From contig JBHGNT010000021.1 in assembly GCA_043228905.1 (NCBI GenBank), positions 6,138,001 through 6,202,000 on the forward strand: a stretch of 64,000 bases of DNA, given 5' to 3'. This DNA comes from Azolla caroliniana. Taxonomy: Eukaryota > Plantae > Polypodiophyta. A program made the translations under genes and the position numbers. The notes under the pieces were generated by a model. The model saw only the letters and a list, made by a program, of their open reading frames with translations. It made no database searches and was not told the DNA's origin. Positions 2-54,399 of the stretch are shown here, one piece after another. Each line of letters starts with the position of its first letter. Position 1 is the first letter of the stretch.

Positions 2-1825
2 ATGAAGAGCTCCAAGTCGACCGGTGAGGATCAACTCTACGAGGAGCAGTCCCGACCGGCAAGGGACCGGTTAGCACTCGAGGATCCGGCCGAAGACGGT
101 GAAGAAACAGAACCGGCCAAGGAAGATGAAACTGATACCGGAACCGGCCCCGATCCCGAAATGGATTCGGATGAAGAGGAAACGGAGGAGCCGGTTACCA
201 AAGCTCCGGAACGGAGATATCCTCTAAGAGAGAGAAGGGCCCCCCGGAGATTTCCGGAACCAGAGCACGTGCTGCTAACCGACGAGGGGGAGCCAGAGAG
301 TTTTGAAGAAGCAAAGCTTGACACCCAGAGCCGCAGGTGGTTAAGTGCCATGCAGGAGGAGATGGATTCCCTGCATGAGAACCACACATATGAACTTGTG
401 GAGTTGCCGAAAGGAAAGCGGGCACTTCGAAACAAGTGGGTGTTCAAGCTGAAACCGGGAGATGCCGGAAACCCCCCGAGATACAAAGCCAGGATCGTGG
501 TGAAGGGGTTCCAGCAGAAGAAGGGCGTCGACTTCGACGAGATATTTGCCCCGGTAGTGAAGATGACCTCCATCCGGACGGTGCTGAGCATAGCGGCAAG
601 CATGGACCTCGAGGTAGAACAGATGGACGTGAAGACGGCATTCCTTCACGGTGACCTCGAAGAAGAGATCTACATGCAGCAACCGGAAGGATTCGAGAAG
701 AAAGGAAAGGAGCACCTGGTATGCCGGTTGAAGAAGAGCCTTTACGGACTGAAGCAGGCTCCCCGGCAATGGTACCGGAAGTTCGACTCTTTCATGACCG
801 ACGAAGGGTACCACAAAACGCAGTCCGATCACTGCGTGTTTGTGAAGAAGTTCGAAGGAGGAAACTTTCTAATACTCCTCTTGTACGTGGACGACATGTT
901 GATCGTCGGACGGGACCAGGTCAAGATACGGATGCTGAAGAAAGCACTTCACCGAACCTTCTCAATGAAGGACTTGGGTCCGGCGAGGCAAATACTAGGG
1001 ATGCACATCATCCGGGACCGGAAGAAAAAGCAGTTGTGGCTGTCACAGGAGAAGTACGTGACAAAGGTGCTTCACTGGTTCAACATGTCGGAAGCAAGAC
1101 CGGTCGGGTCAACCCTCCCGGCAAACTGCAAGTTATCCAGCAAGCAAAGCCCCAAGACAAAGGCTGAGAAGGAGGACATGATGAAAGTACCATATGCCTC
1201 TGCCGTCGGAAGCTTGATGTACGCAATGGTGTGTACAAGACCGGACATAGGATATGCAGTCGGAGTGGTGAGCCGGTACATGAGCAATCCCGGCAAAGAG
1301 CACTGGAACGCGGCCAAGTGGATACTCCGATACCTGAAGGGCACGGCAAACGTGTGCCTCCGATTCGGCTCCGGTAAGCCCAAACTCGACGGCTTTACCG
1401 ATTCGGATATGTCGGCTGATGCAGATACCAGCCGGTCCACGTCAGGGTATGTGATGACGTATGCAGGGGGAGCTGTTTCGTGGCAGTCGAGGCTGCAGAA
1501 GACGGTTGCGTTGTCGACCACGGAGGCGGAGTACATGGCGGCTGTTGAAGCCGGCAAGGAAATAATATGGATGAAGGACTTCATTAGGGAGCTCGGTATC
1601 CGGCAGGAGGAGTACCGACTCTACTGCGACAGTCAGAGTGCCATCCACCTTGCGAAGAACGCGGCCTATCACTCACGGACGAAGCACATCCAGCGAAGAT
1701 ATCACTGGATCCGGGAAAGGATAGAAGACCAGGAGTTCGTGCTGACGAAGATCCACACGGACGAGAACGGGTCAGATATGCTGACCAAAGTGCTCACACC
1801 CGACAAGCTGGAAGCGTGCCGGAAG
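2..1825 (+). mobile_element. Ty1/Copia (Tnt1/Tork-like) polyprotein, RT + RNase H; 5' part lies outside the window; interrupted at 1825 by a DNA-element insertion
   Basis: ORF 2..1891 has Copia RT motifs (KARIVVKGF, QMDVKTAFLHG, LKKSLYGLKQAPRQW, LLLYVDDML) and RNase H motifs (FTDSD, STTEAEY, CDSQSAI, RTKHI). The residues after EACRK are read-through into the insertion. Confidence 0.97.
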
Positions 1826-2151
1826 CCCGGGGGCTTCACTTTGAAAACTTGTATGATAGCACGTGAGTTCATCAAAAGGAGTTTAAATTAACCATTGAGA
1901 TACAAAATGTATATATATAAGGGTATTAACAAATGCATAAAAAATATATTTACATAAGGGTATTATCAATTATGTTATAGAAAAAAATTACATAAGCCCA
2001 TGAAATATTAGATATTTCAATGAGATAATAAATAATATATTGTGCAAACAATAGTCAAATTTGGAGTGGCATCCATACATACATACATATACATGCATAC
2101 ATGCATATATGTACCTACATTTAAACATTACATCCATAAATATGTATATAC

Positions 2152-3520
2152 TGTGGTGTGCATGTGTTCCTTTGTGCCACCCTTTTAGCTCACTCTTTTT
2201 AGGATGCACGTGCCCAAAATGACCCACCCTTTTAGCACACCCTTTTTAGGATGCGTGTGCCAAAATGACCCACCCTTTTAGCACACCCTTTTTAGCCAAG
2301 CCAACCCAAATGGGTTCCGTTGTATCAACTATAAATTGATTAAGAAGTAAGAAGCTAAGGGGACTGGTTTTGATCTCTTATGTGCATTTCACATATTGGT
2401 GGAGACGACGGGGTACCAGTCCCCCACATCCAAGCATCCGCCTCTTCCGCTTCGTAGGTAGCATCACCCTCACCACCATCACCGACACTCTTGTTAGTCT
2501 CTTGTAGTAGTATCTCTTCTATTAGCACCGCCTTAGTTCACTAGTTAGGCCTCCCGATATCCACCGCTTTATCATCAACATCGCTTCATTGTGTCTATTT
2601 TTTAGTTTCTTTCGTGTTCGTGTTCGTGTTCGTGTTCAAGTTCCCGATGAGGGCCACACAAGGCCACTCACACTCCCGTTGGTGTTCGTGTTCCAGTTCC
2701 CGGTGAGGTCCGCACAAGGCCACTCACTCCCGTTGGTGTTCGTGTTCCAGTTCCCGGTGAGGGCCGCATGGTCGCTCACGCTTGTTCGTGTTCGAGTTCC
2801 CGGTGAGGGCCGCATGGTCGCTCATGCCCGTTGGTGTTCGAGTTCCTGATGAGGGCCACACATGGCTGCTCACTCCTGTTGGTGTTCATGTTCTAGTTCC
2901 TGGTGAGGGCCGCATGGTCGCTCACGCCCGTTCGTGTTCGAGTTCTCGATGAGGGCCGCACATGGCCGCTCACTCCGTTCGTGTTCCTGTTCCCAGTGAG
3001 GGCCGCATGGTCGCTCACTCCCGTTTGTGTTCCAATCTCCGGTGAGGACCGCACATGGCCGCTCACTCCAACTATTGTTCGTGTTCCAGATCCCGGTGAG
3101 GACCGCATGGTCGCTCATGCCCGTTGTTGTTCATGTTCCAGTTCTTGGTGAGGGCCACATGGTCACTCACTCGTTCGTGTTCCAATTCTCGGTGAGGACA
3201 ACATGGTTGCTCACGCCCGTTGGTGTTCGTGTTCCAACTCTCAGCGAGGACCGTTCCAGTTCCCGGCAAGGACCACACATGGTCACTCATGCCCCTCAAT
3301 CTCTTGTTTCTCGCAGGGGGGAAATGTGGTGTGCATGTGTTCCTTTGTGCCACCCTTTTAGCTCACCGTTTTTAGGATGCACGTGCCCAAAATGACCCAC
3401 CCTTTTAGCACACCCTTTTTAGCCAAGCCAACCCAAATGGGTTCCGTTGTATCAACTATAAATTGATTAAGAAGTAAGAAGCTAAGGAGACTGGTTTTGA
3501 TCTCTTATGTGCATTTCACA
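2152..3520 (+). mobile_element. TRIM-like non-autonomous LTR element (LTRs 2152-2393 and 3325-3520) with an internal minisatellite
   Basis: Near-identical TGTGG...TTCACA LTRs (the 5' copy has a ~46-bp internal duplication). PBS-like TGGTGGAGACGACGGGG at 2397 resembles the complement of a tRNA-Ala 3' end. PPT CAGGGGGGAAA; 4-bp TSD ATAC. Confidence 0.9.
2610..3295 (+). repeat. ~45-50 bp tandem repeat array (about 14 units) inside the TRIM
   Basis: Unit approx. GTTCGTGTTCCAGTTCCCGGTGAGGGCCGCATGGTCGCTCACGCCCGTTGGT. Confidence 0.9.
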
Positions 3521-4033
3521 ATACATACATTACACCCATTTATACATGCATATTGACTAAACAAGAATATATATACAAATATATATTATCATATGTAGAT
3601 ATGTACGTACACATACATAAATACAAATATGTAAATGCATACATGCTACATACATATTATAATAAGCCCATGAAATATTAGATATTTCAATGAGATAATA
3701 AATAATATATTGTGCAAACAATAGTCAAATTTGGAGTGGCATACATACATACATACATATACATGCATAGATGCATATATGTACCTACATTTAAACATTA
3801 CATCCATAAATATGTATATACATACATTACACCCATTTATACATGCATACTGACTAAACATGAATATGTATAGAAATATATATTACCATATGTAGATATG
3901 TACATACACATACATATTATAATAAGCCATATGTATTGACAAATGTTAATACATGCATAAAAAATTACATATTACATATCATATGATCCATTCATATTAC
4001 ACAATATACAAATTTACATACACTGCATTACAT

Positions 4034-4094
<61 letters not shown>

Positions 4095-4665
4095 GGTATA
4101 GGTTATATGGAACCATAAAACCTACAATACTTACATATATACATACATACACACACACACACACATCGGATATATGACTGCATATTACTTACATATTGAA
4201 AACATAAATTCATATACGATCCATACACATACTAGACATGAAAATATCCCAAAAATAATACATTACATATATACACATACGCACATTCATACATGTACAT
4301 GCATATATTCATTCATAGATTACTACACATATATACGTACATATGCCTACAATGTTACACATAAAAAATTTACAAACATACATCCATACACATACATACA
4401 TACATACATTACATATGTACATACATATCACCACATACACGAACATAGACACACACATGGTCATACACACTATAATAGTACATATATGCATACACATACA
4501 TACATTAGATATATACATACATATTATGCACATATTATAAACACACATCCCTGGACACATTAAATCATGTGCATTGACACGTGCATATATGCATACAGGT
4601 ACATACATACATATTCCACATATCACTATATATATAGGTCATACAGGGTCATACAAGTTACAATA

Positions 4666-4701
<36 letters not shown>

Positions 4702-4865
4702 ATATACTTATGCTTACACATACATTGGATAATATATGCATGCATATTATGTGATATTGCAAACATACATCCATATATGAGCCATACACATACTAAACAT
4801 GATAAATACACCGAAAATATACATACATGAATACATGACATATTACATGTATACACATATATGCA
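3521..4865. repeat. AT-rich (TACA)/(CA)/(TA) low-complexity DNA, including a tandem duplicate (~3660-3930) of the TRIM insertion site
   Basis: ~3660-3930 repeats 1990-2151 joined to 3525-3660; microsatellites at ~4030-4095 and ~4670-4698. Confidence 0.85.
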
Positions 4866-7800
4866 TTATTTATTTATTTATTTATTTATTTATAAAGATA
4901 TCCTGTCATTAGTATAGTCATTTTACAAGATTCAAAGTTCTATGTAATTGGGGGGGGAAACAACCATTTCGGAGGTTGATAATGCCAATAAGGAGTACCA
5001 CAGTTGGCTGTCATGAATGGAGAAGGTTTCCATATAGTGATAAACTCATGCCGTTGAGCAATCTTAGCATCAGAGTCACCAATAATACCATCCCATTGGC
5101 CCTTCAAAGTATGCACTATGTCTAACCAAATATTTGAGACCAATTCGGCCGGTGGTGTTTTCAGTTGTTGGAAAATAAGAGAGCACCTAGTCTTCCAAAT
5201 ATGATATATAGTGGTACTACTCAATATCTCCCATACTGGTTGGACTTCCTTTCGTATTCCTGTAAACTGTAGTGACAACAATGGTACTTTATGTACTCTT
5301 CCAAATTTAGTGCAAAATCCATGGTCCATTGAGTCGTTATCATAATGAAATACATCACGGACAAGAGATGTCCAAACCACCATACCCCAAGTGAAAACCA
5401 ACGGGGAGAAATAATTAGCAAAAATTCTAAGGAGACGTTGCCATATCAATTGAGACTCAATACATTCCCATAAGCAATGTTTGTGAGTTTCCATTTGTAA
5501 ACGACATCGTGCGCAAGTAGACTCTACTCCCATCCTATGCAGCCAGGTGCCAACTGGCAAGGCTCGATGTACAAGCAACAACTGTACATGCAATATTTGG
5601 TGTGGCTGTTTTCTAGCCCATAACACTACCCAAAAATTTGCCAGGAATTGGGGAGTAATACCTTGTTGATTCCAAAATTGAAAAGCAGCCGGTGTCACAT
5701 CTCGTATATCTGAAAGCACATGTCTTCCTAACTGTACAGAATATTGGAAGAAATTAAATTTGTTACCCGTAAAAGGGTCTGTCCACTGATAATCCATTGG
5801 GTCCCATTCTAATCTGAAAACCGGTATTTTAGCCAACACCCACAACTTCCAATGTGCCTTTATTTCCCCAAGCATTGGGTCAATGTACCATTTCCGGTCA
5901 GCATATCCGATGATTCTTATCTTGTGTTCCATAGCATAAGGGTAATCTATCCTCATTTCCCCGGATTGTGTCAATTGGTTTGCTTCATCCACCTCAAAGG
6001 ATCGGTAGGTCTTATCATCTGAATATCCTTTAACAGCCAAGAGTACTTCCAATCTTGAAAAGACCCCAACCCATCTGTGATTAGAGTTATTGGGTGGAAT
6101 AGGAAATCTACTCATAGCCTCTTGAATTTGTTGGTACATTATTTGTCCCCCATGCATACTACCTAGGATTTCTTTTTGTTCTTCCCATGACCTTGATAAA
6201 AAACGTTGCCATGTCTGAACAGTTTTTGCAGGACCTTCTGCCATTTTTCCCCATGATAACCATTGTCTAGAACCCAACAACGAACCATCTGATGTTGTAA
6301 ACAACGGATTCCAAACTATCCTTTGTCTAATATACTCAATATAATGATTGGGCTTAGGTTTATTGCGAAGCAAACCAGGTAATACTTGTTTCCATGCCAA
6401 AAATACTGTTCTAATAAACCTGTCTTCCCACTTGTTAGCTGCAGGTACTCTGAAATTTTCCCTAAATATCCAGTTTACATCCTTAGACCAAGGGGCACCT
6501 AATCGAGGAAAGCAGTCTGAACAGTGGTCGAGTAATAGTATTTTCCATATCTCTTTCCCCGGCGTAAATCCTCTAATGAGCAACTTACTTAATAGTGCTC
6601 TTGATTGGTCTACTGGATCAATAATACTTAGGCCTCCTTTAGAGCGAGGTAAGGTAATAACATCCCATTTTACTTTAGACCGAGCATTTCCTTCCGATTT
6701 GCCAGACCATAGAAAATTACGAATCAATCTGCGTATTTTCAGAATACATGACTTGGAGAATATCCAACATGACAAAACATACCATGTTGACGCCAATAAC
6801 ACCTGATTGGCAACTATAACCCTACCAGCAAAAGACAACTTAGCTGAACTCCATAATAACAGTTTTTGCCTCAAAGACAATAAGAGGGGAGCCACTTGAT
6901 TTTCCATCGAAAGATCAACACCTATAGTACATCCTAGGTACCGAACTGGGCAACCTGATGGTATCCATCGAAATTGCGGGTGCGGGTTCCATAACGGAGG
7001 ATTTACATCTCCCACCCAAAATGCAAAGGACTTGTTCCAATTAACCAATGCACCTGAAGCCTTACAGAATGTGGATATGGCCACTTCTGTTTTTTCCAAA
7101 TTTTCCAAATCACCTTTTAAGTATAGGGCAGTGTCATCTGCAAATTCAGCATCCCTTACTTCTATATGTGAGAGTGGAATGCATAGTCCACGTATACCAA
7201 TATCAGCAGCATTCAAAAAAGAAATCATTGCCTCAGCAAAAAACAGGAATAGAAAGGGAGCCAGTGGACAACCCTGACGAACTGATCGAGAAATATAAAA
7301 CAAAGGGCCATAATCTCCAGCCAACAAGACTCGGCTTTGTGCAGCATTATATAATGAGGAAATACCTTTTATCCATTCTTTTGAAAATCCAAAGCGAATC
7401 AATACCCCTTGTAAAAATTCCCAGTCAACACGATCATATGCTTTCTCAAAATCAAGCATAAGAACAACCAACTTTTGATTAGATTTAGTTGCCAAGGCCA
7501 CAGATTCCCAAAATGTGTACACATTATCCAAAATACTTCTTTCTCGAATGAATCCTGTTTGAGTCGGATGTATAACTGTAGGCATTATGGTGCTGAGTCA
7601 TATACTAATTGCTTTAGCCAAAATTTTATACACTGTATTTAGTAGTGTAATCGGCCGCCATTTCTTGATGTCGAGTGAAGGACCGTCTGATTTAGGAATA
7701 AGATAAATCAATCCTTCTGTAAACTGAGAAGGCATCCTACCCTCGCGAAGAATTTGCTGAAATGCTGTGCATAAATCTGCTTTGAATACGTCCCAATATT

Positions 7801-8593
7801 TAATAAAAAATGTTGGGGTTAGACCATCCACACCTGGACAACAATTTTTAGGCAAAGCGTGAAGCGCTTCAGTTAATTCATGACATGTAAGAACATCTTG
7901 AAGACTTGCATTCATATCCTCTGTTATTCTTGACTTCAACTTATTCCATACATGTGACCGACATACTAATTCTTCATCAGAGAAAGAAACAGCTGATAGT
8001 AGGTTAGAATAGTATCTTGTGGCTATTTCTCTCATTACTTGAGAATCAGATGAGATGGTCCCATTCTCATGTTGTAGTTGTTTGATTGAAACCGCATTAT
8101 AATTAGGTCTCTTTGAATGAAAAAACTCAACTGTACATTTGTCACCCACTTGGGTCCAATTAGCTGCCCTACGATGATATTGAAATTCTGCACGCTTTTC
8201 TAATAGTTCAGCTAGTTCTTGTTTTGTTGACCCACGTTTCTCGGCAATCCAAGTACAGTGTGGGTAACGTTCTTGTAACCGTTGCAAGGAAACAAGAGAA
8301 GCACGAGACCTTTTCTCCCTTTCTTTCATCATAGCAAACCTTTCCTTAGATTTACACCTGAAAAATTCTGAAATTCTTTGTAGGCCATTAGCTACCCGCA
8401 TAGTCATTGATTCTTGCCCAACATCTTTTTGCGACCATAAATCAATCACCTGTGATGAGAAATTATTGTCTAACAATAGCTCTTCAGGAATCTTCAGATT
8501 GACAAATTCTTTATTCTTTTGAGTCGAGAGTGAAAGAATAATTGGAGCATGATCAGAAAAGGTAGTTCCTGGCATTATATGCACGGTACCCGT

Positions 8594-11500
8594 TGTCGTA
8601 GTGTATTTCGTACACTACGTGAAAAAGTAAAAATAATATAACCGATTTAATTACATATAAATAAATAAAATAAGAATATCAAGATATTTATCACGTGCAT
8701 AAGGCAAGATTTGAACCTTGTACCTCCACGTAGCCAAACCTCAACTTTACCATTATACTACCTTATCTTTAGTGTTCTATAAATAGATTTAATAACTATA
8801 AGTGCTTTATTTGCGCCTACCTTTATTAAAAGGTAAATCGTGCATTTTTAGAGTGTGTGAATATTTTATAGAAAAAACGCAAGCAACTAAAAAGTGACTC
8901 GTGCACATCTAGCGTGCATGAGCACTATATTTAGCAAATAAAAGCAAGGATTAGAAAAGCATCACATGCATATTTAGTGTGCATGAACATATTAGAAAAA
9001 AAGCATGTAGCTATGCTTAGTCTCTCCCATCACTACATAAGGATGGGGAGCACAATGTAATAGGTGTGTGAAATATTTGGAAATTGGATATATTTCCGAA
9101 AACACCAACCGATTAATATAATCGTGGGATTCACGAAAATAATATAATCTATACTTGTGGGATTCACAAGTTTCTTATATCTTTCTTTCAATCTAAATAC
9201 ATATTCTTATCTAAATATTGAATAATCGAATAAAATACACTCGTGGGATTCACGAAATTTCTCTTTCTAATAATCTATTCATTACTAGCCTCATCTCATA
9301 TTCTTCTTTCTCCTAGTCCAAAACCTCGGCGGTTCCCACCCGACTCACGCAACGATCCGGAGCCGAAAGGCACGACACAGTTGGTGAACCCGACGTGAAG
9401 GCGGGTGGCAAGGAGATGGAGAATCAACAAGAGGCAATGAGTATAACAATGATGATGATGTTCGAGCGGATGCTACAAGAACAACGAGTGATGTCGGAGA
9501 TCACGGGGGCAGTAAAGCGGCTCGTACAACGAAACGGACAATTCAACGGAAACGATCTGTCACGCTATCTACATGACTACAAGGCGGAGATGATACGATG
9601 TGGGATACCGGAAGGATTGCAAGTGACATCCTTCAATCGGGTGGCCACGGATGAGCTACAAGAGAGAATCCACAAGATACGGCAACAAAACTCGACATGG
9701 GGGTCATTCGAAGAAGCTTTACGAGAGGCATATGATTACAAGAGATCGAAGGGAAAAGATCGGCGAGAATTCGACGAATGGGTGGCATCGGAGAAGACCC
9801 ACCGAAGTGCAACACAAGCATTCCTAGAGTTCGAGCATCGTTTTGCTCGACTCTCGGAGCGGGAACAACGATTGGTGGGAGAAGATAAAGTCCTAATGTT
9901 CGTAAAATCGATCGATCGAAAAGAAAGGATAGACATCGGGATCGAACTCGAAGACGATGAAGGTACGAATGGTCTTACCGAAGATTGGGCCGAAGTCCAA
10001 AGGGTATGCCGGAGACATGATGAGAGGAAGATGAGAATCTTGTCAACGACATGGCCGATGAAGGATGGTCGATTGAAGACAAACGATGGAGCCGATATGA
10101 AGGCCGAAATACAACATGATGGTGCGACGGAAGAGGGTGTAAAACAAGCTACCCTCTTGTCTTGCGAAAGAACGACGACGAAGGATAAGGCCGATAACCC
10201 AAGTGTAGAAGAAGATTTCGGAATACAAGTGTCCGAAACATCAGGTGAAAAAGGGGTAAGCATAATTGATGTTTCCATAATTGATGCAGTGAAAGAGAGC
10301 AAGGAGGACTTGATTGAGGAGGTCACCAAGAAAGATGACATCGAATCGAAGGTGGCTATGGACGAATCAATGGCGGATGGCCATATCGAGATTTCTCCAC
10401 CACTGATTCCAGAGACTCCAGCGGTTGCGTTCGAAAGGCAACGTGAGACCGAAGAGACGGAAGGTGGTGGAGAGAAAACAAAGGTCGAAGCCGATTCATA
10501 CGACGGAGAGATAGCCGAGAAGGAGGCTATGGTTGAAATGACAGAGGATGATAATACCGAGGATTCCTACCCACTAATTCTAGAGACTTCGGCGGTTGTG
10601 TCCGAGAACCAACGTGAGACCGGAGAGACAGGAGGTGGCGGCAAGAAAGGTAAAGTCGGAAGCCGGTTCGGATGGAAGGTGATCCGGACAGGATTCCGAT
10701 CCGAAAGAAAGCCGAACCGGGTAAAAGAGGATTCGACCGAAAGTCGACCCGAAAGAAAGCCGAACCGAAAGGAAGAGAATTCAGCCGAAAGACGACACAA
10801 ACGAGACCGATCCGGAAAGAAGCTAATCCGACTCAACTGGGGGTTGGACCGGTCGAGGCTGGTGAAAACGAGGAAAAGAAAGCCAACCGAAACCAAAACC
10901 GATAGATCGAAACCGGGCCGGAAGGAGACCGACTCAATCGAAACCGAACAACCGATTCCGATTCGGCCGAATACGAATCCGATCGGAAGCCGATCAAACC
11001 AAAAGTCGATCGGACGAGAGCGATCCGGAAAAAAGTCAAGGTTGATGAAGACAACAAAGAGGCCAGTAAAAGACACTACCACGAATGACAAGGGCCAAGA
11101 ATATGATGAGAGAGAACAAGGAATATGGTGGATCGGATGGCGACAATGGTTCGGGTGGAAAGAATGGGTCTACTCAAAATGGAGAGACAAAGTTGACATA
11201 GCGGGACAAACGGAGGATGAAGGGGAGACAACGAGCATCGGCAACTTCGGCACATACCGGAGGATGTGCGGGTTCGGAGGGGGCGAGTGTCGTAGTGTAT
11301 TTCGTACACTACGTGAAAAAGTAAAAATAATATAACCAATTTAATTACATATAAATAAATAAAATAAGAATATCAAGATATTTATCACGTGCATAGGGCA
11401 AGATTTGAACCTTGTACCTCCACGTAGCCAAACCTCAACTTTACCATTATACTACCTTATCTTTAGTGTTCTATAAATAGATTTAATAACTATAAGTGCT

Positions 11501-12071
11501 TTATTTGCGCCTACCTTTATTAAAAGGTAAATCGTGCATTTTTAGAGTGTGTGAATATTTTATAGAAAAAACGCAAGCAACTAAAAAGTGACTCGTGCAC
11601 ATCTAGCGTGCATGAGCACTATATTTAGCAAATAAAAGCAAGGATTAGAAAAGCATCACATGCATATTTAGTGTGCATGAACATATTAGAAAAAAAGCAT
11701 GTAGCTATGCTTAGTCTCTCCCATCACTACATAAGGATGGGGAGCACAATGTAATAGGTGTGTGAAATATTTGGAAATTGGATATATTTCCGAAAACACC
11801 AACCGATTAATATAATCGTGGGATTCACGAAAATAATATAATCTATACTTGTGGGATTCACAAGTTTCTTATATCTTTCTTTCAATCTAAATACATATTC
11901 TTATCTAAATATTGAATAATCGAATAAAATACACTCGTGGGATTCACGAAATTTCTCTTTCTAATAATCTATTCATTACTAGCCTCATCTCATATTCTTC
12001 TTTCTCCTAGCCCAAAACCTCGGCGGTTCCCACCCGACTCACGCAACGATCCGGAGCCGAAAGGCACGACA
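8594..12071 (+). mobile_element. Gag-only non-autonomous LTR retrotransposon (TR-GAG-like) with 784-bp LTRs at 8594-9377 and 11288-12071
   Basis: LTRs TGTCGTAG...CACGACA differ at only about 3 positions by eye. PBS TGGTGAACCCGACGTGAA (9382-9399) is complementary to the plant tRNA-Trp 3' end. PPT GGAGGGGGCGAG; TSD CCGT/CAGT (1 mismatch). Confidence 0.93.
9416..11335 (+). CDS. Gag-like protein (~640 aa): capsid-like N-terminus, acidic middle, basic/Trp-rich C-terminus; no pol motifs
   Basis: Uninterrupted ORF from just after the PBS into the 3' LTR. N-terminus FNGNDLSRYLHDYKAEM...WGSFEEALREAY is Gag-like (inference). No protease, YxDD or integrase motifs. Confidence 0.7.
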   Translation: MENQQEAMSITMMMMFERMLQEQRVMSEITGAVKRLVQRNGQFNGNDLSRYLHDYKAEMIRCGIPEGLQVTSFNRVATDELQERIHKIRQQNSTWGSFEEALREAYDYKRSKGKDRREFDEWVASEKTHRSATQAFLEFEHRFARLSEREQRLVGEDKVLMFVKSIDRKERIDIGIELEDDEGTNGLTEDWAEVQRVCRRHDERKMRILSTTWPMKDGRLKTNDGADMKAEIQHDGATEEGVKQATLLSCERTTTKDKADNPSVEEDFGIQVSETSGEKGVSIIDVSIIDAVKESKEDLIEEVTKKDDIESKVAMDESMADGHIEISPPLIPETPAVAFERQRETEETEGGGEKTKVEADSYDGEIAEKEAMVEMTEDDNTEDSYPLILETSAVVSENQRETGETGGGGKKGKVGSRFGWKVIRTGFRSERKPNRVKEDSTESRPERKPNRKEENSAERRHKRDRSGKKLIRLNWGLDRSRLVKTRKRKPTETKTDRSKPGRKETDSIETEQPIPIRPNTNPIGSRSNQKSIGRERSGKKSRLMKTTKRPVKDTTTNDKGQEYDEREQGIWWIGWRQWFGWKEWVYSKWRDKVDIAGQTEDEGETTSIGNFGTYRRMCGFGGGECRSVFRTLREKVKII

Positions 12072-12206
12072 CAGTTGCTGAAATAAATTTGCCAGATAAA
12101 TAAATTTTCCGGAGAGAGAGAGAGAGAGATTCATCTTTGTTAACTTCTTCTCTTTCTTTTTCTCACAGAGGAACAAGATAGAGAGAGACAAGGTTTACTT
12201 GTAACT

Positions 12207-12552
12207 ATGGACATCTTCACCTTCATCGGCAGAAGTGGCGGTGGCTCTTGGAGTGCTAAGCAACACCTTGCTTCTGAGGATGGAGTTTGCCTTGAGGGAT
12301 CCGCAGATTCTTCCTTCAATCTTTAGCACTTGCTTATGAAGCTCTCTCTCTCTTTTCTGACACTTTTGGATTGGTTTTCCAGATAATCATTGGTGGTGGA
12401 GGAGGGGCGGCTTTGTGTCTAGTGGAGCAATAACATCGGTTGGGGGTGGGGTAGGGGGTAGTGGTGGTGCTCCTATTGTAGAAGAGAAGGAAGAAGTAAA
12501 AGAGAAACAAGAAAAAAGAGATGATGATATGGGATTCTCGTTGTTTGATTAT
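12207..12552 (+). pseudogene. RPP3: Decayed copy of plant 60S acidic ribosomal protein P3
   Basis: MDIFTFIGRSGGGSWSAKQH...LEGSADSSFNL* resembles the P3 N-terminus (MGVFTFVC...WTAKQ). FQIIIGGGGG linker and C-terminal EEKEE...DDDMGFSLFD. Contains stops and frameshifts. Confidence 0.85.
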
Positions 12553-13142
12553 AATTAATTAATTCAACTATTAGAGTAGAAATAATGTCCTTTTGTTTGC
12601 ATTTTGTATTCGGCCTTTTTCCACTTTATTAAGTCTAGTTGCTTAGAAAAAGTGGCTATTGGGAATTTATTTATAAGGGTTTTTTTTTCATGACATGGAT
12701 GTATGTATGTTTACATTTTGGAGTTATCAATAGTGAGTTGCTTTGGTTTGAGAGAGAGAGAGAGAGGAAAAGAAAGCAAAGAGGGCAAGAGAGAAGGAGC
12801 CATGAATGTGATCGACCTCTTAGAAGTGGCCCTCCTTTAGCAAGCAAGGATGTGTAGGATGGGCTACAAGAAGGCGAGAATTTATGGCCATTAGGATCCA
12901 AACCACTTTTCGAGGGTTATTGGTTTAGTACCATATCAATTTTTTACCATATTCATATGTGTGCATTTGTATTTGCATATGCATGGTTGTGTTTGTATGT
13001 GTCTATTTGTATGCATGTATGAATGCATGCACACATGCATTGGTAGCATTCAATCTCATGTTATTTTCTTCCATGTTAATTTGTGTATTTGCTATTGTCA
13101 TTTCACAGGCAAGAAGAGTTCTTTTGGTCTTGAGAAGCCTCA

Positions 13143-13829
13143 TGGGGAGCTCATGATGGCGGTGCTTTCTATAGGAAGGACCATACCAAGTTTGATTCGA
13201 GTAATGCTACATTGTGAGGCACGTTGTGAAGAGTATTGTTGCAACAACAAGACTTGCTCGTCATTGCATTGTCCCGGTATGTATTCTTCTTGTGACCTTG
13301 GTGGATGTTGAGCCTTGTTCTTCACTCATTGTGGCACGTTTTGTCCTTTTTCATGCAAATAAAGTCACGAGAAAAGATTGAACACTATTCTTCTTAGGAG
13401 CTTAGTAGAAACCAAGTTTGGTTGTGGATATTGGTCAAGGAATGTATATTAGTTTAGGAAAATGTATTCATTGTGTTTCCTTTTTATTCTTGAAATTGAA
13501 ATGAAATGATGAGAAATTGTTTTACTTCAGGAAACCCTAATCCCCAATGATTGTGCATATTGGTTAAGGAATGTATAATAGTTTAGGAAAATGTATTCAT
13601 TGTGTTTCCTTTTTATTCTTGAAATTGAAATGAAATGATGAAAAATTGTTTTACTTCAGGAAACCCCAATCCCAATGATTTTCAACCTTAGATTATGGCT
13701 ATCCACCTCGACCTTCGCAGAGGCTGAAACAAACATTACCAGAAGACCCCTACATATGGTCACTTTGGTCGTGATGACCCCGACTTCACATGGGAAATCG
13801 TTAAGCCATTGAAGTGGGAGAAAGCTTAG
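13143..13829 (+). pseudogene. SAMS: 3' portion of S-adenosylmethionine synthetase in two collinear pieces (~13143-13320 and ~13677-13829)
   Basis: WGAHDGGAFYRKDHTKFDS / YIVRHVVKSIVA..RLARHCIV correspond to [20 protein letters not shown] / AYIVRQAAKSIVA..LARRCIV. The second piece reads [39 protein letters not shown]. Confidence 0.9.
13425..13680. repeat. Two tandem copies of a ~127-bp AT-rich unit between the SAMS fragments
   Basis: TGGTYAAGGAATGTAT...TTACTTCAGGAAACCCYAATCCC..ATGATT occurs twice. Confidence 0.85.
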
Positions 13830-14820
13830 CTCGGCTTAACTTTTGATTAGTTATTGTAAAAGTGAAACAAAAAACCGACAAAATTTACTATTATGACTAG
13901 GGTTTTTGCTTATGATCTATGTCTTTCTTTCTATTAGAGAAGTATGCAAAAATAAGAATGAAATGGTTGGAAAGGAAAGTATAGAGGAGATGATATTTTG
14001 CTTATTCCAAATTTTTTCTCTTAAAACTCTTTTTTAACTAATATGGGAGTTTTGTCCCATTTGTTTGAAGTTTTTTCTTCAAATATTTGTTTTCTTTTCA
14101 TTATTTCAAATGGAAGAAAAATAATGGGCTATTTATAAGAGAGCACAACAACAAATATTCATGTACTATGTGTGGTGATGGAGATGTTGAGTTAATTGGA
14201 TATTTTCATCAAAGGCTCAGTGTGCTTAATTGCTTTTCTATATGATATCTTTGTATTTAAGGATATGGAGCTTTCAATACTTGAGACTTGGCTTCACATC
14301 TAACTAGTTTTTATTTTGGTGTTCAGTTATGCTAAGAATGCACCATCAAAGCTCTCATACCATGAGTTTGTTTTGAAGCTAACTATCAAGGGAGGTTGAA
14401 GCATGCATTTCTTCCTATGATTGCCTTTTGTTCTATAATAAGTATGGATGGTCTTCGTTCCTTTCATGACTTTTTGGATTTGGTGGTTAACATTTATTAG
14501 GAACATTTCTGAAGCCAAGTGGGTGTTTATTCATCGAATCCCACCCACTTTAATCTTCACTAACTATGTTTGTGGATTTTTATTATCACCTAACATTGTA
14601 TTCATCTTTCTTGGTGCTACATCATTAGGAGAATGCAAGGTCCTCATTTCTACTTGTTGTAAAGGAAGGAGATTGATAAATAAATCATTGCATGTGTTGT
14701 AATATATTACTTTCCTCTCGTCTAATGAATTATTGTTTGTTTGAAACATTATTTGAACCGTAGGTATGTCATTATTATAGCAAGTTGGTTTTGCATGTTG
14801 CAAACTATATAATCTAAGGA

Positions 14821-14920
14821 AAAGGTGTATTAGAAAGAGGTGTTGTATTGCCAATAGTGTGATTGATATGTATGGTAAATGTGGCTTGATCCATGTAGCA
14901 CAGATATGCTTGATAAGCTT
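14821..14920 (+). pseudogene. Fragment of a PLS-class pentatricopeptide repeat gene
   Basis: IANSVIDMYGKCGLIHVAQIC matches the PLS-PPR signature N.LIDMY.KCG....A..VFD. Confidence 0.7.
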
Positions 14921-15562
14921 CACATATTGAATCGGTCATATATTAATCTCTTCCTCGTTAAATAATGTTGTGATGTGAGAAGTTATTGAGCATTTGAAGG
15001 AACTTGTAGTGATGGGGTATTCATGATGATTGTTGATGAAATTTCATGAAGTTTAAATATAGAATAACTATCAAACCAAATAATGAACTCCTGAGTCTTT
15101 ATTAATAAAAGAATATCTATGATTTAGGTGCAAATAGACACGAGCCCCTACACACATAACACATAGATACATACACACATGTTATACAACTAAGATATAC
15201 CACACATACAATATAATATATACATAAATAAATATGGAATACAATACATACATGCAATGCAATACATACATATGAACACACACATAACACATACATACAT
15301 AAAATATATACAACATATGCAATACAATATAATACATACATACACATATGTATAAAACATACATGTGTCTTCTATGTAAGGGCATTTAAAATGAGTTGTT
15401 GTCAAAATAAATATTGGCACTAAGGGGTATTTTTATTAACCATATTTTTATAGAAGGGTATCCAAAATAGTAAAAAACATACGTATAAGGGGTTTATAAA
15501 AGGTGTCGTGAACGCACGTGATATAACCTCTTTATATATAGTGGAGCCCTCGGGGCCGGAAG

Positions 15563-16209
15563 AGGGTCGGACAGGAAAGACATCCCATGCCGAAGTGAAG
15601 GGGGAGTTTGTTGGGATTACGGTCCCTCCGGATGGGATGGTCAGATGTCCGGGAATCGGGAATGAAGACCCGAATGAGGAGTACCCGGTATCGGAACCGG
15701 ATGATGAAGACCCGGTTTCGGATCCGGATGATGAAGACCCCGGCTACGGAGCCGGATGACGAAGACCCGGTTTCGGAGCCGGATGATGAAGACCCCGGCT
15801 ACGGAGCCGGATGACGAATGTACCCGGAGAGAGATCCGGATGCGGGGACATATTTGTGAATATGTTTGCCAAGGGCCCTCTAGGCTATATTTGTAAATAG
15901 CCCGAAAGTCATATGTGTATAAATATGACTTAGGGCAAACAGTTTTGTAGTTGTTGCTCATTTTTCTGTTTTCCACTTAGAGGGAGCGAAGTGAGAGCAG
16001 CCGAGAGAGAGAGTGAGAGAGAGAGAGAAAGGAAGAGGTCGACGCCTCTGTGTAATACCGCCGCCTGTGGCGAGGACAGCGAGCTCAAGGTCGTCGCCTT
16101 GTAGCTCGCCATTGTACATTCTCTGTGTTTTGATTTACTTCTGCATTGATTCGTGTTTCCTCGGTTGTGGCCGAGAGTTGAAGGTTTTGAAAGCGTCGAT
16201 TTCCTAACA
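15563..16209 (+). mobile_element. Remainder of the same Copia: last codons (RVGQERHPMPK*, stop 15596-15598), PPT, and 3' LTR 15609-16209
   Basis: The frame resumes after the duplicated GCCGGAAG. PPT AAGTGAAGGGGGAG precedes TGTTGGG; the LTR ends CCTAACA. U3 has CCGGATGATGAAGACCC repeats. Gypsy pol sequence follows immediately. Confidence 0.9.
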
Positions 16210-19200
16210 CATAGGTAGGAAATTTTGGTTCTCCGACATCGGAGGTTGTACTATAACCAGCGTCAGCGGCAGGGAGAGGAAGCGAGCGGAGGAGCGGCTC
16301 AGGGGATGCAGAGTCCTCTTCCCCGACGAGGGCATCAACGGCGCCGTGGAGGCGGTCTCTTTTGATGACACCTTGGGCGAACTACGAAAGGTGATCGGTG
16401 AAGACCTTAGAGAAGACCAGACTATTCCGATGGGGTCAATAGGAATATACGAAGTCATCGCAGACTTCGGGGAAAGAATCGGGTCGGATCGGGAGGCCCG
16501 CATGGATACGAAATACAAGACTGTGGACCGGAAGGTAAGGCCAGTCGCGGCACCCTTGCCGGAGGGCAGCGAGTAGCGGATAAAGGGGGTCGCGTCGGAC
16601 CCAAGTTTACGAAATCCGACTGGCATAGGGCACCAGTTCACCGACATAACGCTACGGGAGCTCAAGGTCGGTGGGGGCGGCTTCCTACTGCCGGTGGAGG
16701 AGGACCGGTTTCAGAGAATTCTTGGGAGGCACGGGAAAGCTTTCGCATTCTCACCGGAGGAGATCGGGTGCGTAGACCCGACAGTTGTCGAACCGATGGT
16801 GATCTTCACGGTACCGCATGTACCGTGGAATCTCAAGCCGATTCCGGTGCCGAGAGCTCACATCCCGAAGTTGATGGAGCTCCTTAAGCAAAAGGTGGAG
16901 ATGGGCATCCTCGAACCATCGAGTGCCCCGTATTCGAATCGGTGGTTTACGGTGCCGAAGAAGAACGGCACGTTGCGCTTCATCCAGGACCTACAACCGG
17001 TCAACAAGGTGACCATCCGTAACGTAGGGATCGGACCGACCATAGACCAGTTCGCGGAGGCCTTCGCTGGAAGGTCGATCTATTCTGTCGGTGATCTGTA
17101 CTCGGGGTACGATCAGTTCCAACTAGTTGTAGAGAGCAGAGACGTTACGACGATGCGGACTCCTCTCGGCCTGGTGCGGATGTGTACCCTGCCACAAGGA
17201 GGGACGAACTCAGTGGCTCACATGGTGAACGCGATGAACAAAGTGCTCAGGGATTGTATCCCGGACATCACCATGCCGTTCTTAGACGACATCCCGATCA
17301 AGGGATGCCCGGTGGAGAAAAGGGACGAGGCAATCGGGCCGGACGGATGTTGGAATTTCGTGGCGTCCCACATCGATGACTGCAAGAAGGTACTGCAGAG
17401 ACTAGAGCGCGCGAGGCTCACCTTCTCCGGGGAAAAGTCGACCTTCAGACAGCCGGAAATCTTGGTGGTCGGACACCTGTGCGGGCCTTACGGTAGAAAA
17501 CCGTCTCCAGCAAAGGTAGAGGCCATCTCCGCGATGAGGAACGTTTGCGGGTCGGTCACGGAGGTCCGCAGATTCTTGGGGGCATGCGCGTTCTACCACA
17601 TCTGGATCCCGCACTACGCACATGTCGCGGAACCCCTCTACGGACTATTGAAAAAGGGGCGTAGCTTTGAGTGGAGGACGGAGCACACGGAGTCGGTTCG
17701 GAGACTAAAGGAAGCGCTTACAGCAGCGCCGGCTCTCCGTAAAGCGGTTTACGGCAAGGATGTTCCCATCTGCGTAACGGTGGACACCAGCCTGACCAGG
17801 ATCGGGTGGGTAATCAGTCAGGAGGACAAGGGCGGCGCACGATTCCCGATCTGATTCGGGGCGAAGGTATTGAGCGAGCAGCAGCGAGGGTACGCCCAAG
17901 TTAAGCGCGAACTTTGGGGTGTCGTTTCGGCGGTCAAGGCCGACAAGGATAATCTGATCGGGACGGAGGTGATTATCGAGACGGACTGCCTGCCGATACT
18001 CGGCATGGTTTCTGGATGCGCGACACCAGACCTAGCAATGCTCCGGTGGATAGCGTACATTAAGTCCCTGAACCCGCAGATACGGCACATCTCTGGAAAG
18101 GACAACGCCATGGCCGACATGCTTTCGAGGGCAAGGTTTAACGACGAAGACGGCATGGTTTCGGAAGACGAAGAAGTCGGCGAGGACTTCTTCGGGTCGG
18201 CTAACATAACGACGAGGAAAGGGAACACTCCGGCGCTTAATGAATTTGACAAAAGCAGGTACGACGGGGAGTGGCTCCAAATCGGGAGGTTCCTACGGAC
18301 GATGACGCCGGACGCAGCATGGGCGAGAGAGGAGGCGAGCCGGATACGGAGGAAGGCATACCGATTCTTCCTGCGGGACAGGTGCATATGGAGGCACCCA
18401 AAGAAGAGAAGCGGCATTCCAGTCTGAGTAGTGGCAAAGAAAGAAGAACAGGGGAAACTACTGACGGCATTTCACGAGATCCCCTGGGCCGGACACCGCA
18501 GAACGTGGGCCACTTTCGAGAAGCTAAAGGAGAAGTACTGGTGGTCGGGGCTGTACCAGGACGTGCATCGGTTCGTAACGACTTGCGAGAGCTGTCAGAT
18601 GCACTCCGTAGTCCGACACCGGGACGAGCTACACCCGACCTACCCGCCTACGGTCCATTTCAAGTGGATGGTGGACTTGGTGACGATGCCGATGGGGGTA
18701 GGACAGATGCCATACCTGGTGCTTGCACGGGAAGACTTAACGAACCAGGTGGAAGGCCGTGCACTGCAAAGCAAGACAACCGCGGCGGTATGCCGGTTCC
18801 TGATCGAAGAAGTAGTGTGTCGATATGGGTGCGTCGGGAGGATCGAGGCGAACCGGGGAGAGCTGGATGCGCGGGAGGCTGAGGAGTTGTTCGACCAGCT
18901 AGGTGTCAAACTCTCCCTCACCACGGCGTACAATCCGGAGGCGAACGGAAAGGTGGAACGTGGGCACGGACCGATTGTAAAGGCGTTGGTGCGTGCATGC
19001 AGTGGGCAGGTCGGGAATTGGCCGCGACTCCTTCCTTACGTGCTATGGGCGGACCGGACTACGCACAGTTCGGTGACAGGGTTTATGTCGGCGGAGCTAA
19101 TGTACGGACAAAAGTCGATCATGCCGGTGGAACGGACGGTTTCTTTGTGGGCGGCGGTAGATTGGAAGGACGAAATGAGCCGAGAGGAGTTGCTGGCGGC

Positions 19201-20304
19201 GCGGATTCGGCAACTCGAGCGGAGGCCAGAGGACGTGATACGAGCGAAGGAAAAGTTGCGGGCAGCGAGGGAGCGTAACAAGACCCGGTTCAACCAGGCG
19301 CACCGGTTGTGACCAAAGAAGATCGAGGAAGGCGATTGGGTCTTGGTATACGATAGCAGCCTCGACAATCAGCACAAGGCGGTGCAGAAGTTTGCTAGGA
19401 GATGGTTTGGGCCCTACATGGTGACGAGCGCGAACGGCAACGGCACGTACCACCTCACGGAACTCGACAGGACACGGTTAGCGGTGCCGATGGCCGAAAA
19501 GCGGATCAAAGCCTTCAAAAAGCGGTTCGAAGACGAGCCGGAGCCTGCGAGCGGGAGCAACAACGACGATCAGTTCGGGTCCGGCGGAGAACCGGAGAGC
19601 GACGAGTGAGGCCGGGTTTCTTCGATATCTACCCGTCTATGGCACATACCAGTGGATGCGCGGTTTGGTGGGGATGGATGTCGTGAAGAAAATCGGCCAT
19701 AGGCAGAATCAGAGAGAAAGCGCGTGAACCGGCCCCTACACGGATGGACGCGTGACTATATACTTTGTACACGAACCGATGGATGTGACTACTAAGCCAC
19801 ACGCATTTATTAGAGGGGATTGTGCGTATCCCAGAGAGGGGACAGGGAATAAAAGGAAGAAGAGAAGAGAAAAATGATCATCGCGCGCGAGGGAGAAGGG
19901 AAGCGATGTTGTAGAAGGGAAGTCGAGCTCTCTCTCTACTCCTCGAGCCGTCGTTCTCTATGGGTCCGTCGCCGCCTGTGGGAGTGCATTGCCTCTGCTT
20001 CATGGACAGCCCGTGTGCTTCCAGCAGAGTCGCTCCCTTTTCCCATTGTTTCTTGCAGTCAGGTGACTGTCGTCGATGTGCGTGAGTAGGGTCCCCGTGT
20101 CGGGTCCGTCACCGCCACATCGGTTGTAACTGTCAGGGATTGAAATCTCTTGCCATTATAATTAAGTGTTACAATTCTATCTCTTTCCTTCTCTCTTTTC
20201 GTGTCGGTGAATCTCTCTTTGTCTCTCTCTCTCTCTCTCGCTCCTCGGTCCAAGACCCCCGTGGTCCCGCCCCTTTCCACACGTACGTGCATAATAACGC
20301 GACA
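16210..20304 (+). mobile_element. Ty3/Gypsy element, 3' part: pol (RT, RNase H, integrase) with four in-frame stops, PPT and 3' LTR 19679-20304
   Basis: ORFs at 16346, 16694, 17870, 18431 and 19343 share one frame. RT DLYSGYDQ, LPQGGTNS, FLDD; RH TVDTS, ETDC, NAMADMLSR; IN H..PWAGH...CESC, TAYNPEANGKVER, WFGPY. No chromodomain seen. LTR TGTCGTGAAG...CGCGACA followed by ACGT. Confidence 0.93.
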
Positions 20305-51918: not shown

Positions 51919-54399
51919 GTGTGTTTATTTGGAGGGGCTTGGTCTAACCCTAATGTGTCATGATCGGGTGACCTAAAAACACTTAGGATCTATCGGAAGG
52001 TGACCTAATCACACTTCGGATTTATCGGAAGTTCGTAGGAGAAACACAAAGGAAACAACACATCTACAAAGTGCATGATTTCGAAACCTTTACCATTGAC
52101 TTTTTGCAACATGAAAACACATACATAAATACATGGTTGTCACTGAACCACCTCTATGCCGGCTTTAAATCGGCCACTAATTAGAACAAACATGTGTCTT
52201 GAGAACTATGGAAATACACGGAACATTTTGGTCTTTTTATGTTTCTCTGGACGAGCCGACACATATTCCTGAATCATCTGCATAACATGAGTTTTATTGG
52301 TGTCTCTCGTTAGAGCTCTTAGAAAAGACCGACCAAAACGGTGACCAACAAAAAACAATGCAAGAAAAACCAAACAGAAGATGCTTATGAGGGGGAATAA
52401 TTTAATCGACGATGGAAGCGTAGAAATAAAGTGTGATAATACATTATTGCACATATGTCGTGACACCATGAAGAGGAAATAGGTTGGGGTGGGCTTGAGT
52501 GTGCCCTCTGATATGAACTAACTCTATGCCTAAGAGTGTGAGAAAAACGCATTGTGGTAGATTATGGAAAGGAGGGAAGGGCGCACACACAAGATTTTGT
52601 CTCTTACAATGATTATGAGTGAATACAAAGTCCACTGAGATGACGATAAAATAATCGAATATATATCACAAGCCATCTCAGTGTCTCCTAGAGTCTTGGA
52701 CCCCTGCATGTTGAAATCGTCCCCTTCTGTCTCATTGGAATTTGTTCTATGGAACGAGGAACCTAGTGGCGCACAAGAAGCATCGATCATTGTGCCACTG
52801 TTGGTTGTCGTCCAGAAAACATAAATAAATGTTTGTTTGTTTTTTAAATCCATTTGTTTGCGGTGTGTTTCCTATTTACAATTGTGTAAGATTCTCAAGC
52901 AATAGTAGAGGTCTAGAGTTTGTGTAACATTATTCTGTCATCACCCCTTGTATAACAAATAAAGGACAAGACCAGTAGTCCTTTTTTTCACTTTCAACCA
53001 CGTGGTTTTCTCTATGAAATTTCCTTGTAATGGGACCTAACACCTAGTAAATCTCTTTGTATGCATGTCATCAACACATGTTTAATTGTGCTAGTAATCA
53101 AAAAAGCCCTCAGAAATGCACTTTACTGTATATATATACTCTACCATTGTATTTTGTGCTTCAAGTATGTTCATACACATGTAACTATGCGCATAGATAG
53201 ATAGAAATACAAAATGCTCATGGGAAATGAGCCCCATCATCCATTTTAAACGTTATATTGAAAAATTAGCTTACTCAAAAGTTCACCTCCCTTGATCTTC
53301 GGACCCTTACCCTCAAAACGTTCGAGCTATGCACTTTCTTCTAACATCACACTTTTTATTGCTCCCAAAAAAGAAGAGCCCTCGGGTCATATGATTTTAA
53401 TCATTCCCTATGAGCAAACTACTCAAAGGAAGGAAGTTTTTTCATCGTGATGAACGACTTTCGAGTTTTTCAAGGCATCCCAAGAAAGGTTACACCATCT
53501 ACATGTGAAAGGAAAACAATGGTTTACCTTCAATAAGAATGAATTCTTCTACGAGCCATGCAACGTTTCATGTCTTCAAAGCTCCCTTTCTTGATTGTGG
53601 TCAAGAAAGCTTTTTTTTAAATGTTTTTTCTTTTCCATTTTATATAGTTAAAAAATATAAGTTAATCGGAATGTAACACGTATGATGACTTTGCATGGAA
53701 ATGGACATGGATGATTCCATTAGGTGACATCCAAACATACCGTTTAAAGATTTTTTAAAACATGTCAAGCTTATAGAAAGATAACAAATGTTTAGCTTAT
53801 TGTTTTATGATTAAGAAAAATGAATGTATTACTCACACTTTCGATGTCGCTCTCTGCCCCTCCCAAATGTGCTAACAAGTTATCATAATCTACCATTTTG
53901 TCTAGTGATGCAATACATGTTAGTTTTATTTAATGAGCTTCAGTATAACATTGTTAACGAGAGAGAGAATTCATAATTTAGTGTGCATTATTTGTAGTGA
54001 GATTTGACAAAGAGAGATTATGGTCCCTTATATAGTAGCTTCATGTAGTATCTTTTGCAATTGAGCTTTATTTTGACATTGTTTGACCAATGCAAGTAGC
54101 AAGGCATGCAATGTACATCATGTTTTCTTCCACACATGCACGCTCGTGTGTATGTGTGTGTATACACACATGGCATACAATTATATATTTAATATACATT
54201 TTTTGGCTTATATAAGAAGAAGGTGCCACAAGCTCTCGAAGAACCATTTTTTTGTTTCTCTTCTCACATTCGTGCATTAGGATGAAAGAGAGCCTAATTT
54301 TGTGTTTTGTCATACATATGATACATACGATCGTCATCGTATACCTAGTGACAACGATGAGAATGAGAGCATGTATAGCCTGACTTTGTAGATCCAATC

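Follow-up and report, generated by a model that had tools for sequence, protein, structure and literature searches.

The stretch of DNA analysed here (the window) comprises 64,000 nucleotides of Azolla caroliniana (Polypodiophyta; assembly GCA_043228905.1, contig JBHGNT010000021.1, positions 6,138,001 to 6,202,000 of the forward strand). Near its start, the pol frame of a Copia retrotransposon (2–1825, + strand; RVT_2, E 1.3e-75) breaks off after ...EACRK, and its end, RVGQERHPMPK*, follows at 15563–15598 (+ strand). The 8-bp sequence GCCGGAAG stands at both junctions (1818–1825 and 15555–15562), which places the boundaries of the inserted element at 1826 and 15554. A related Copia copy (L027), 98% identical, carries a single GCCGGAAG at the same position and represents the empty site. 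The interval 1826–15554 is a cut-and-paste DNA element with an exact 8-bp target-site duplication (TSD). Each end consists of a terminal inverted repeat (TIR; left, 1826–1840, + strand, with the family form CCCGGGGRCTYCAC; right, 15540–15554, − strand) and an inner 12-bp inverted box (left, 1860–1871, + strand, CACGTGAGTTCA; right, 15509–15520, − strand, CACGTGCGTTCA). In an ungapped comparison of the two ends, 13 of 15 terminal positions, 7 of 19 spacer positions and 11 of 12 positions of the inner CACGTGMGTTCA box are identical. Without its nested elements, the core of the element amounts to approximately 5.1 kb, and a tblastn search of the window with the transposase of the family described below yielded no match. 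The original prediction, made by a model from the letters alone, had described the interrupted frame, the exact duplication at both junctions, the bipartite TIRs with their divergent spacer, and a core of about 5 kb lacking a recognisable transposase; all of these descriptions hold, as does the single duplication motif that it expected in other copies of this Copia family. We consider it very probable that this is a non-autonomous copy from a multi-copy family, likely moved in trans by a P-like transposase, and that the intron-free host-gene copies it carries likely arrived as DNA derived from mRNA.

The ends define a family that is widespread in the 523-Mb genome, where 246 left-end and 263 right-end candidates were found and 40 of each were scored. 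The terminal 14-mer has 129 exact matches and its reversed control 0; for the bipartite two-box pattern and its control the numbers are 161 and 0. Copies were chosen via best matches and exact patterns, a sample biased to young copies, and paired ends were present in 51 of the 71 fetched stretches. The genome-wide pairing of ends and tabulation of TSDs proposed in the original prediction gave an exact 8-mer in 36 of the 51 paired copies, a one-mismatch 8-mer in nine and neither in six; no other TSD length fits more than two copies. Of these six exceptions, one becomes exact with other end calls and another has swapped TSDs with a neighbouring copy; in two, a terminal change seems to have displaced the TSD, and the last two lack one. 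The termini read CCC..GGG in nearly all copies. Copy lengths range from 3.7 to 26.6 kb, and most copies longer than 8 kb owe their size to nested elements: the CATA-rich left arm is heavily targeted by long interspersed elements (LINEs), long terminal repeat (LTR) elements, hATs, MULEs and a Sola2-like element. In a tree of the ends from the 51 copies, the coding and cargo-bearing subfamilies form supported groups within one family. A further 29 matches in metagenomes apparently come from the same host species, one of them sharing its flank with a genome copy, and are therefore not independent.

Two oppositely oriented family copies on C3 of G000 (1184526–1190606 and 1205708–1211756; L202–L205) have exchanged 8-bp TSDs, which suggests an inversion of approximately 15 kb by recombination between them. 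This arrangement resembles the inversions associated with BuT5 and Galileo in Drosophila (PMC3698922), with the difference that it is a single instance, read in one genome.

Only the two-box pattern, the looser of the two, revealed a subfamily that starts with CCCGGGGAC and reaches 10.2 kb without insertions. Between its CATA-rich left arm and its right end lies a long gene whose two main exons sum to approximately 1,370 codons, and whose product has two zinc-finger-like CxxC..H..H motifs at its N-terminus, as read from the sequence. Searching the genome with the transposase core returned 59 matches among 62 candidates, all belonging to one family. Both family ends were located at 13 of the 23 transposase loci inspected, one end at seven, and none within the fetched stretch at three; the 13 two-ended loci have exact (nine) or one-mismatch (four) TSDs. 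The gene has a constant place and orientation at 20 of the 23 loci, namely those with family ends. Several copies retain just codons 386–625 or 386–1122 of the exon-2 protein, and in four others no more than the first ~66 codons survive; three of these four have both family ends identified. The truncated forms are a deletion series of the transposase gene. The first 46 copies fetched, which had been picked by likeness to the ends of the window element, contained no cognate transposase beyond the ~66 codons in four. Public assemblies contain a cluster of 58 members whose representative is a stop-free exon-2 frame of 1,122 amino acids, 97% identical. The window element is tied to this coding subfamily through both arms. 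Its left arm (1826–4865, + strand, split by a nested TRIM-like element) shares approximately 330 bp with transposase-bearing copies before turning into CATA/TACA-rich repeats, and its right arm occupies 15370–15554 (+ strand); compared with a full-length 10.2-kb copy, the identity is 88% over 326 bp on the left and 84% over 185 bp on the right.

In contigs of run X1, presumably RNA, two introns of this gene bounded by GT..AG are absent: the first one, predicted at 80 nt, and a 3′ intron. One X1 contig of the same depth skips 3,157 nt (L219:1243–4399), also with GT..AG ends and with 29 letters on its short side. This skip, a lead from one run, would end the frame at approximately 347 codons and leave the zinc fingers without the catalytic core. 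The P element produces a 66-kDa repressor by splicing (PMC7776569). Run X4 had 0 reads on the transposase and is no test of its expression.

A homologue search with the transposase returned 107 matches, most of them unnamed; those with a name are annotated as hypothetical proteins and come from the fern Adiantum nelumboides and the liverwort Riccia. A profile search reached 1,005 clusters at E ≤ 1e-30. With an AlphaFold model of 720 residues (pLDDT 85.8), Foldseek gave two matches below 1e-3, both to the Drosophila P transposase. The VIA overlay on P transposase covers 316 residues (model 1–397 on P chain 228–566) with Z 20.5 and a root-mean-square deviation of 3.0 Å, while the next best of 48,161 chains, the MULE-related ISCth4, reached Z 7.7, and Hermes Z 5.6–6.6. 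The putative catalytic residues are highly conserved: D3 in 53 of 54, D123 in 62 of 65, and E360 in 72 of 73. D3 corresponds to P D230 by the alignment range, and D123 and E360 were placed on D303 and E531 by motif and spacing. D357, three residues before E360 and spaced as D528/E531, is kept in 66 of 73 and an acidic residue at 275 in 64 of 70, the other GTP-binding positions not being clearly kept; both of these mappings are putative and motif-based. The P residue numbers, including that of the GTP-contacting D528, follow PMC7776569. The transposase is predicted to have a split RNase H fold with a D-D-E triad and a helical insertion like the GTP-binding domain of P. In the ESM Atlas, the neighbours with an assigned family are TNP-like P families; the top clusters are unnamed and mostly basidiomycete, and the N-terminal half of a relative gave no usable match there. 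Folded alone, the C-terminal domain matched BAH, chromo and Tudor domains at Z ≤ 7.2, and Foldseek returned nothing below 1e-3; the modelled barrel may weakly resemble these domains, a likeness that may be that of a common barrel alone.

The clearest cargo of the window element is a spliced mRNA copy of a 60S acidic ribosomal protein, which we take to be P3 (12139–12751, + strand; Ribosomal_60s, E 3.3e-7), comprising the 5′ untranslated region (UTR), a broken coding sequence and the 3′ UTR. Its parent lies at G000 C7:4.870–4.872 Mb; the exons are 82% and 85% identical, UTRs included, and the 1.3-kb parental intron is missing from the copy. This sequence has 36 matches in the genome, most within family copies. 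Two further pieces derive from an S-adenosylmethionine synthetase (SAMS) gene: an exon piece (13143–13284, + strand; 75% to a paralogue at C10:18.68 Mb) that runs into an intron-like GTATGT at the intron position of the host paralogues, and the 3′ coding end with its 3′ UTR (13676–14130, + strand; 82% to the C10 paralogue). A SAMS_C match also occurs in a sister copy. Poly(A) RNA reads of run X4 fall on 13691–14130 at an identity of at least 92% and probably stem from a host SAMS gene. This 3′ end is closer to a highly expressed X1/X4 transcript than to the three G000 paralogues found, and the parent may therefore be missing from the assembly or from the paralogue search. Separately, one X1 contig (depth 3.6) skips 236 nt to an AG acceptor at window positions 12872–13109 and may stem from a copy with cargo whose chimeric transcript was spliced.

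Many copies of the family carry cargo, the content of which varies by subfamily. A Pfam scan of 150 of the 278 candidate frames, window frames included, named 60S acidic ribosomal protein, SAM synthetase, WD40, TIC20, RRM, PDDEXK_6, S8e, L7Ae/S12e and DUF1068. Two RPS8 cargoes, from two paralogues, are exon-joined (91–94% and 85–93% identical). An S12-type cargo, presumably RPS12, is present in six copies and joins four exons of a C6 gene, mostly at 89–99% identity, with its three introns gone. Four of the five traced cargoes are spliced, SAMS being the exception. Pack-MULEs are known for capture from genomic DNA with introns kept, and the traced cargoes as a set do not show this pattern. The original prediction of a Pack-type element with host-gene fragments stands as regards a non-autonomous TIR element with host cargo; capture in the Pack-MULE sense fits part of the cargo, the four other traced cargoes being intron-free, and the main "fragment" proved to be a spliced mRNA copy that is almost complete and includes the UTRs. 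Where the flanks were read, the cargoes are lodged between the two halves of a (GA)n tract that also holds LINE pieces. In the window, this tract lies at 12111–12129, and a second one near 12750 closes the ribosomal-protein copy.

Several observations weigh against the reading of a P-like family that carries mRNA-derived cargo; they are collected in this paragraph and the next two. None of the 23 loci read has an intact transposase gene. Since the ends of the window element are only 84–88% identical to the coding subfamily, its own mobiliser may have been an older variant. No target-site consensus was found among 45 sites. As to the cargo, no parent was found for the upstream SAMS piece, which looks unspliced; the nearest paralogue is 75–82% identical. 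A complete, stop-free and intron-free RPS7 copy (92–98% to a C20 gene) was rejected as a cargo of the P-like family, as the element around it is a nested hAT, which ends in CAGTGTTGCC and is flanked by an 8-bp TSD. This Pack-hAT with a retrogene occurs in seven places (L221, at G000 C5:12.975–12.980 Mb, and L303–L309), and mRNA uptake at (GA)n would therefore be a property of the genome and not solely of the P-like family.

Ordinary LINE retrocopies usually have a poly(A) tail, and none of the spliced cargoes whose flanks were read has one. This absence, together with the intron-like sequence in the SAMS piece, favours an alternative for the step of cargo entry: break repair at (GA)n or after excision, with template switching to cDNA, RNA or genomic DNA instead of LINE target-primed insertion. 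Gap-filling capture has also been reported for P elements in flies (PMC8277862). On the other hand, LINE pieces lie in the same tract in several copies, and an RNA step is needed because the four traced cargoes are exon-joined with UTRs. For this step and no other, we regard repair capture as a real possibility, though not the favoured one, and retain entry as mRNA-derived DNA, probably through LINE activity.

P-superfamily termini are CA..TG, and the CCC..GGG ends depart from them. THAP domains are described for Drosophila P and THAP9, and none was found in exon 1, in P0001 or in 48 relatives. These differences, the identity to P transposase of just 14% and the extra C-terminal beta domain would suit a separate superfamily that is sister to P and has the same anatomy. 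The family's own proteins are likewise without a Pfam match: scanning 10 + 39 proteins gave no catalytic-domain match, so that no TNP-like match falls in the catalytic core of these 49, and sequence searches of the PDB with the transposase found nothing. The 1,005 clusters, moreover, amount to a large group of its own. We nevertheless consider a sister superfamily unlikely. The whole split RNase H fold with its insertion overlays P at a Z-score far above that of other transposases; the TSD is 8 bp; and three relatives match PF12017, the P-element helix-turn-helix family, one of them above the cut-off (P0186, E 6.4e-5). The TSDs (36 exact and nine one-mismatch of 51) also fall within the 7–8 bp of the P superfamily. 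Because the THAP domain and CA termini are lacking, the family is filed as P-like and not as a plain member of the P superfamily.

Mobilisation by a hAT, MULE or KDZ enzyme, with the P-like gene itself as cargo, is very improbable and largely refuted. In its favour are the 8-bp TSDs, typical of hAT and KDZ (PMC10741241, PMC12810828), and the hAT and MULE frames inside some copies. Against it, the hAT frames bring their own ends and TSDs; of 150 MULE matches, the three closest to a listed family end lie in two copies, where they read as nested or adjacent; and the P-like gene is fixed in place and orientation and eroded in a deletion series. The rejected candidates comprise hAT frames in E_C18c/F_C9b and G_C7, each nested with its own TIR and TSD, a nested Sola2-like frame in G_C9, and MULE, which is marked by long TIRs, whereas the family TIR measures 14–15 bp plus the 12-bp box and the frames near two copies read as nested or adjacent. 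A genome search for KDZ (PF18758) gave 0 candidates, but its controls were silent too; the Pfam scan of the family protein showed no KDZ match. The original prediction had proposed an unusual superfamily with 8-bp TSDs, which is upheld; its candidates of an atypical MULE or hAT are not, their frames being nested or adjacent and the cognate transposase P-like.

The P-like family shares several features with the Drosophila P element and its superfamily (P, 1360/Hoppel, Galileo, THAP9; PDB 6P5A/6PE2): the 8-bp TSD, terminal plus inner inverted repeats and deleted copies (PMC7776569, PMC3698922), the predicted split RNase H fold with helical insertion and D-D-E triad, and possibly a short spliced product. 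Unlike P, it lacks THAP, has CCC..GGG ends with the inner box just 34 bp further in, encodes approximately 1,370 amino acids with a weakly BAH/Tudor-like C-terminal domain, forms a 10-kb element with a long CATA arm, and resides in a land plant. Non-animal P-like transposases are also described from fungi, with P elements in Pucciniales and Allomyces (PMC5751038) and a repeat class named "P-Fungi". In plants, Pack-type elements have been described in five superfamilies (Pack-MULE, -CACTA, -hAT, -PIF and -Mariner; PMC8903248), and Pack-TIRs are known in animals (PMC8277862). In common with these, the present family consists of non-autonomous TIR elements in which host coding DNA is amplified and the cargo differs by subfamily; in contrast, it belongs to a P-like superfamily outside those named in the available text, and most of its traced cargo is whole spliced mRNA in (GA)n, not genomic fragments. 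The portion of a plant review that was available counts seven TIR superfamilies, P not among them (PMC10741241), and a survey of 1,007 plant genomes whose Pfam screen included P reports, in the part available, seven superfamilies, none of them P (PMC12973397). A transposase without a Pfam match would explain why P-like elements were missed in plant surveys. A literature search found no description of a P-like family in land plants; Repbase, Dfam and supplements, which lay outside that search, may hold such families.

These features are consistent with the following history. The transposase would bind the terminal repeat, the inner CACGTG box and AAGGGTAT-type subterminal motifs, excise the element and insert it with an 8-bp stagger. 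Internal deletion would have stripped the transposase gene from most copies. The (GA)n tract may then take up reverse-transcribed mRNAs, probably made by LINEs inserting in the same tract, and later transposition may have spread each cargo as a subfamily, after which the window copy would have jumped into the Copia element. A broader picture, which we put forward as speculative and rather doubtful, is that of a eukaryote-wide P-like branch or sister superfamily, recently active in seed-free land plants, in which two zinc fingers replaced THAP and a BAH-like chromatin reader was gained, which regulates itself as P does, through a repressor of approximately 347 amino acids made by splicing out the catalytic core, and whose non-autonomous copies trap host mRNAs in (GA)n and multiply retrogenes. 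With its defined ends, TSD, gene model and deletion series, the family allows the GTP dependence, 17-nt staggered donor cleavage and splicing control of P to be tested far outside animals. It also points to gene duplication in two steps: a DNA transposon first receives copies of mRNAs and then multiplies them. Given the stop-free exon-2 frames in public assemblies, a plant-derived P-like transposon tool is conceivable.

The remaining parts of the window copy are nested elements. A TRIM-like (terminal-repeat retrotransposon in miniature) LTR element with an internal tandem array of 46–54 bp units (2152–3521, + strand) is missing from most sister copies; a second copy of it sits within the family copy F_C11 (L098). 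A 5′-truncated LINE with a (TAAA)n tail (4866–8593, − strand, with a final piece at 12074–12110; RVT_1, zf-RVT) occupies a site where approximately 1 kb of the element core is gone relative to sister copies. Within the LINE lies an LTR element (8594–12073, + strand) whose LTRs are identical at 782 of 785 positions. Its one 672-aa frame has no Pfam match, and it shows no clean 5-bp TSD, only a 2–3 bp overlap. All three lie inside the window copy. A possible PPR-like piece at 14840–14927 (+ strand) was noticed in translation, without a Pfam match. Outside the element, a lone CCCGAGGGCT match without an inner box (53378–53386, − strand) is probably due to chance, and a Gypsy-type pol region (16200–19300) directly follows the 3′ part of the Copia element.

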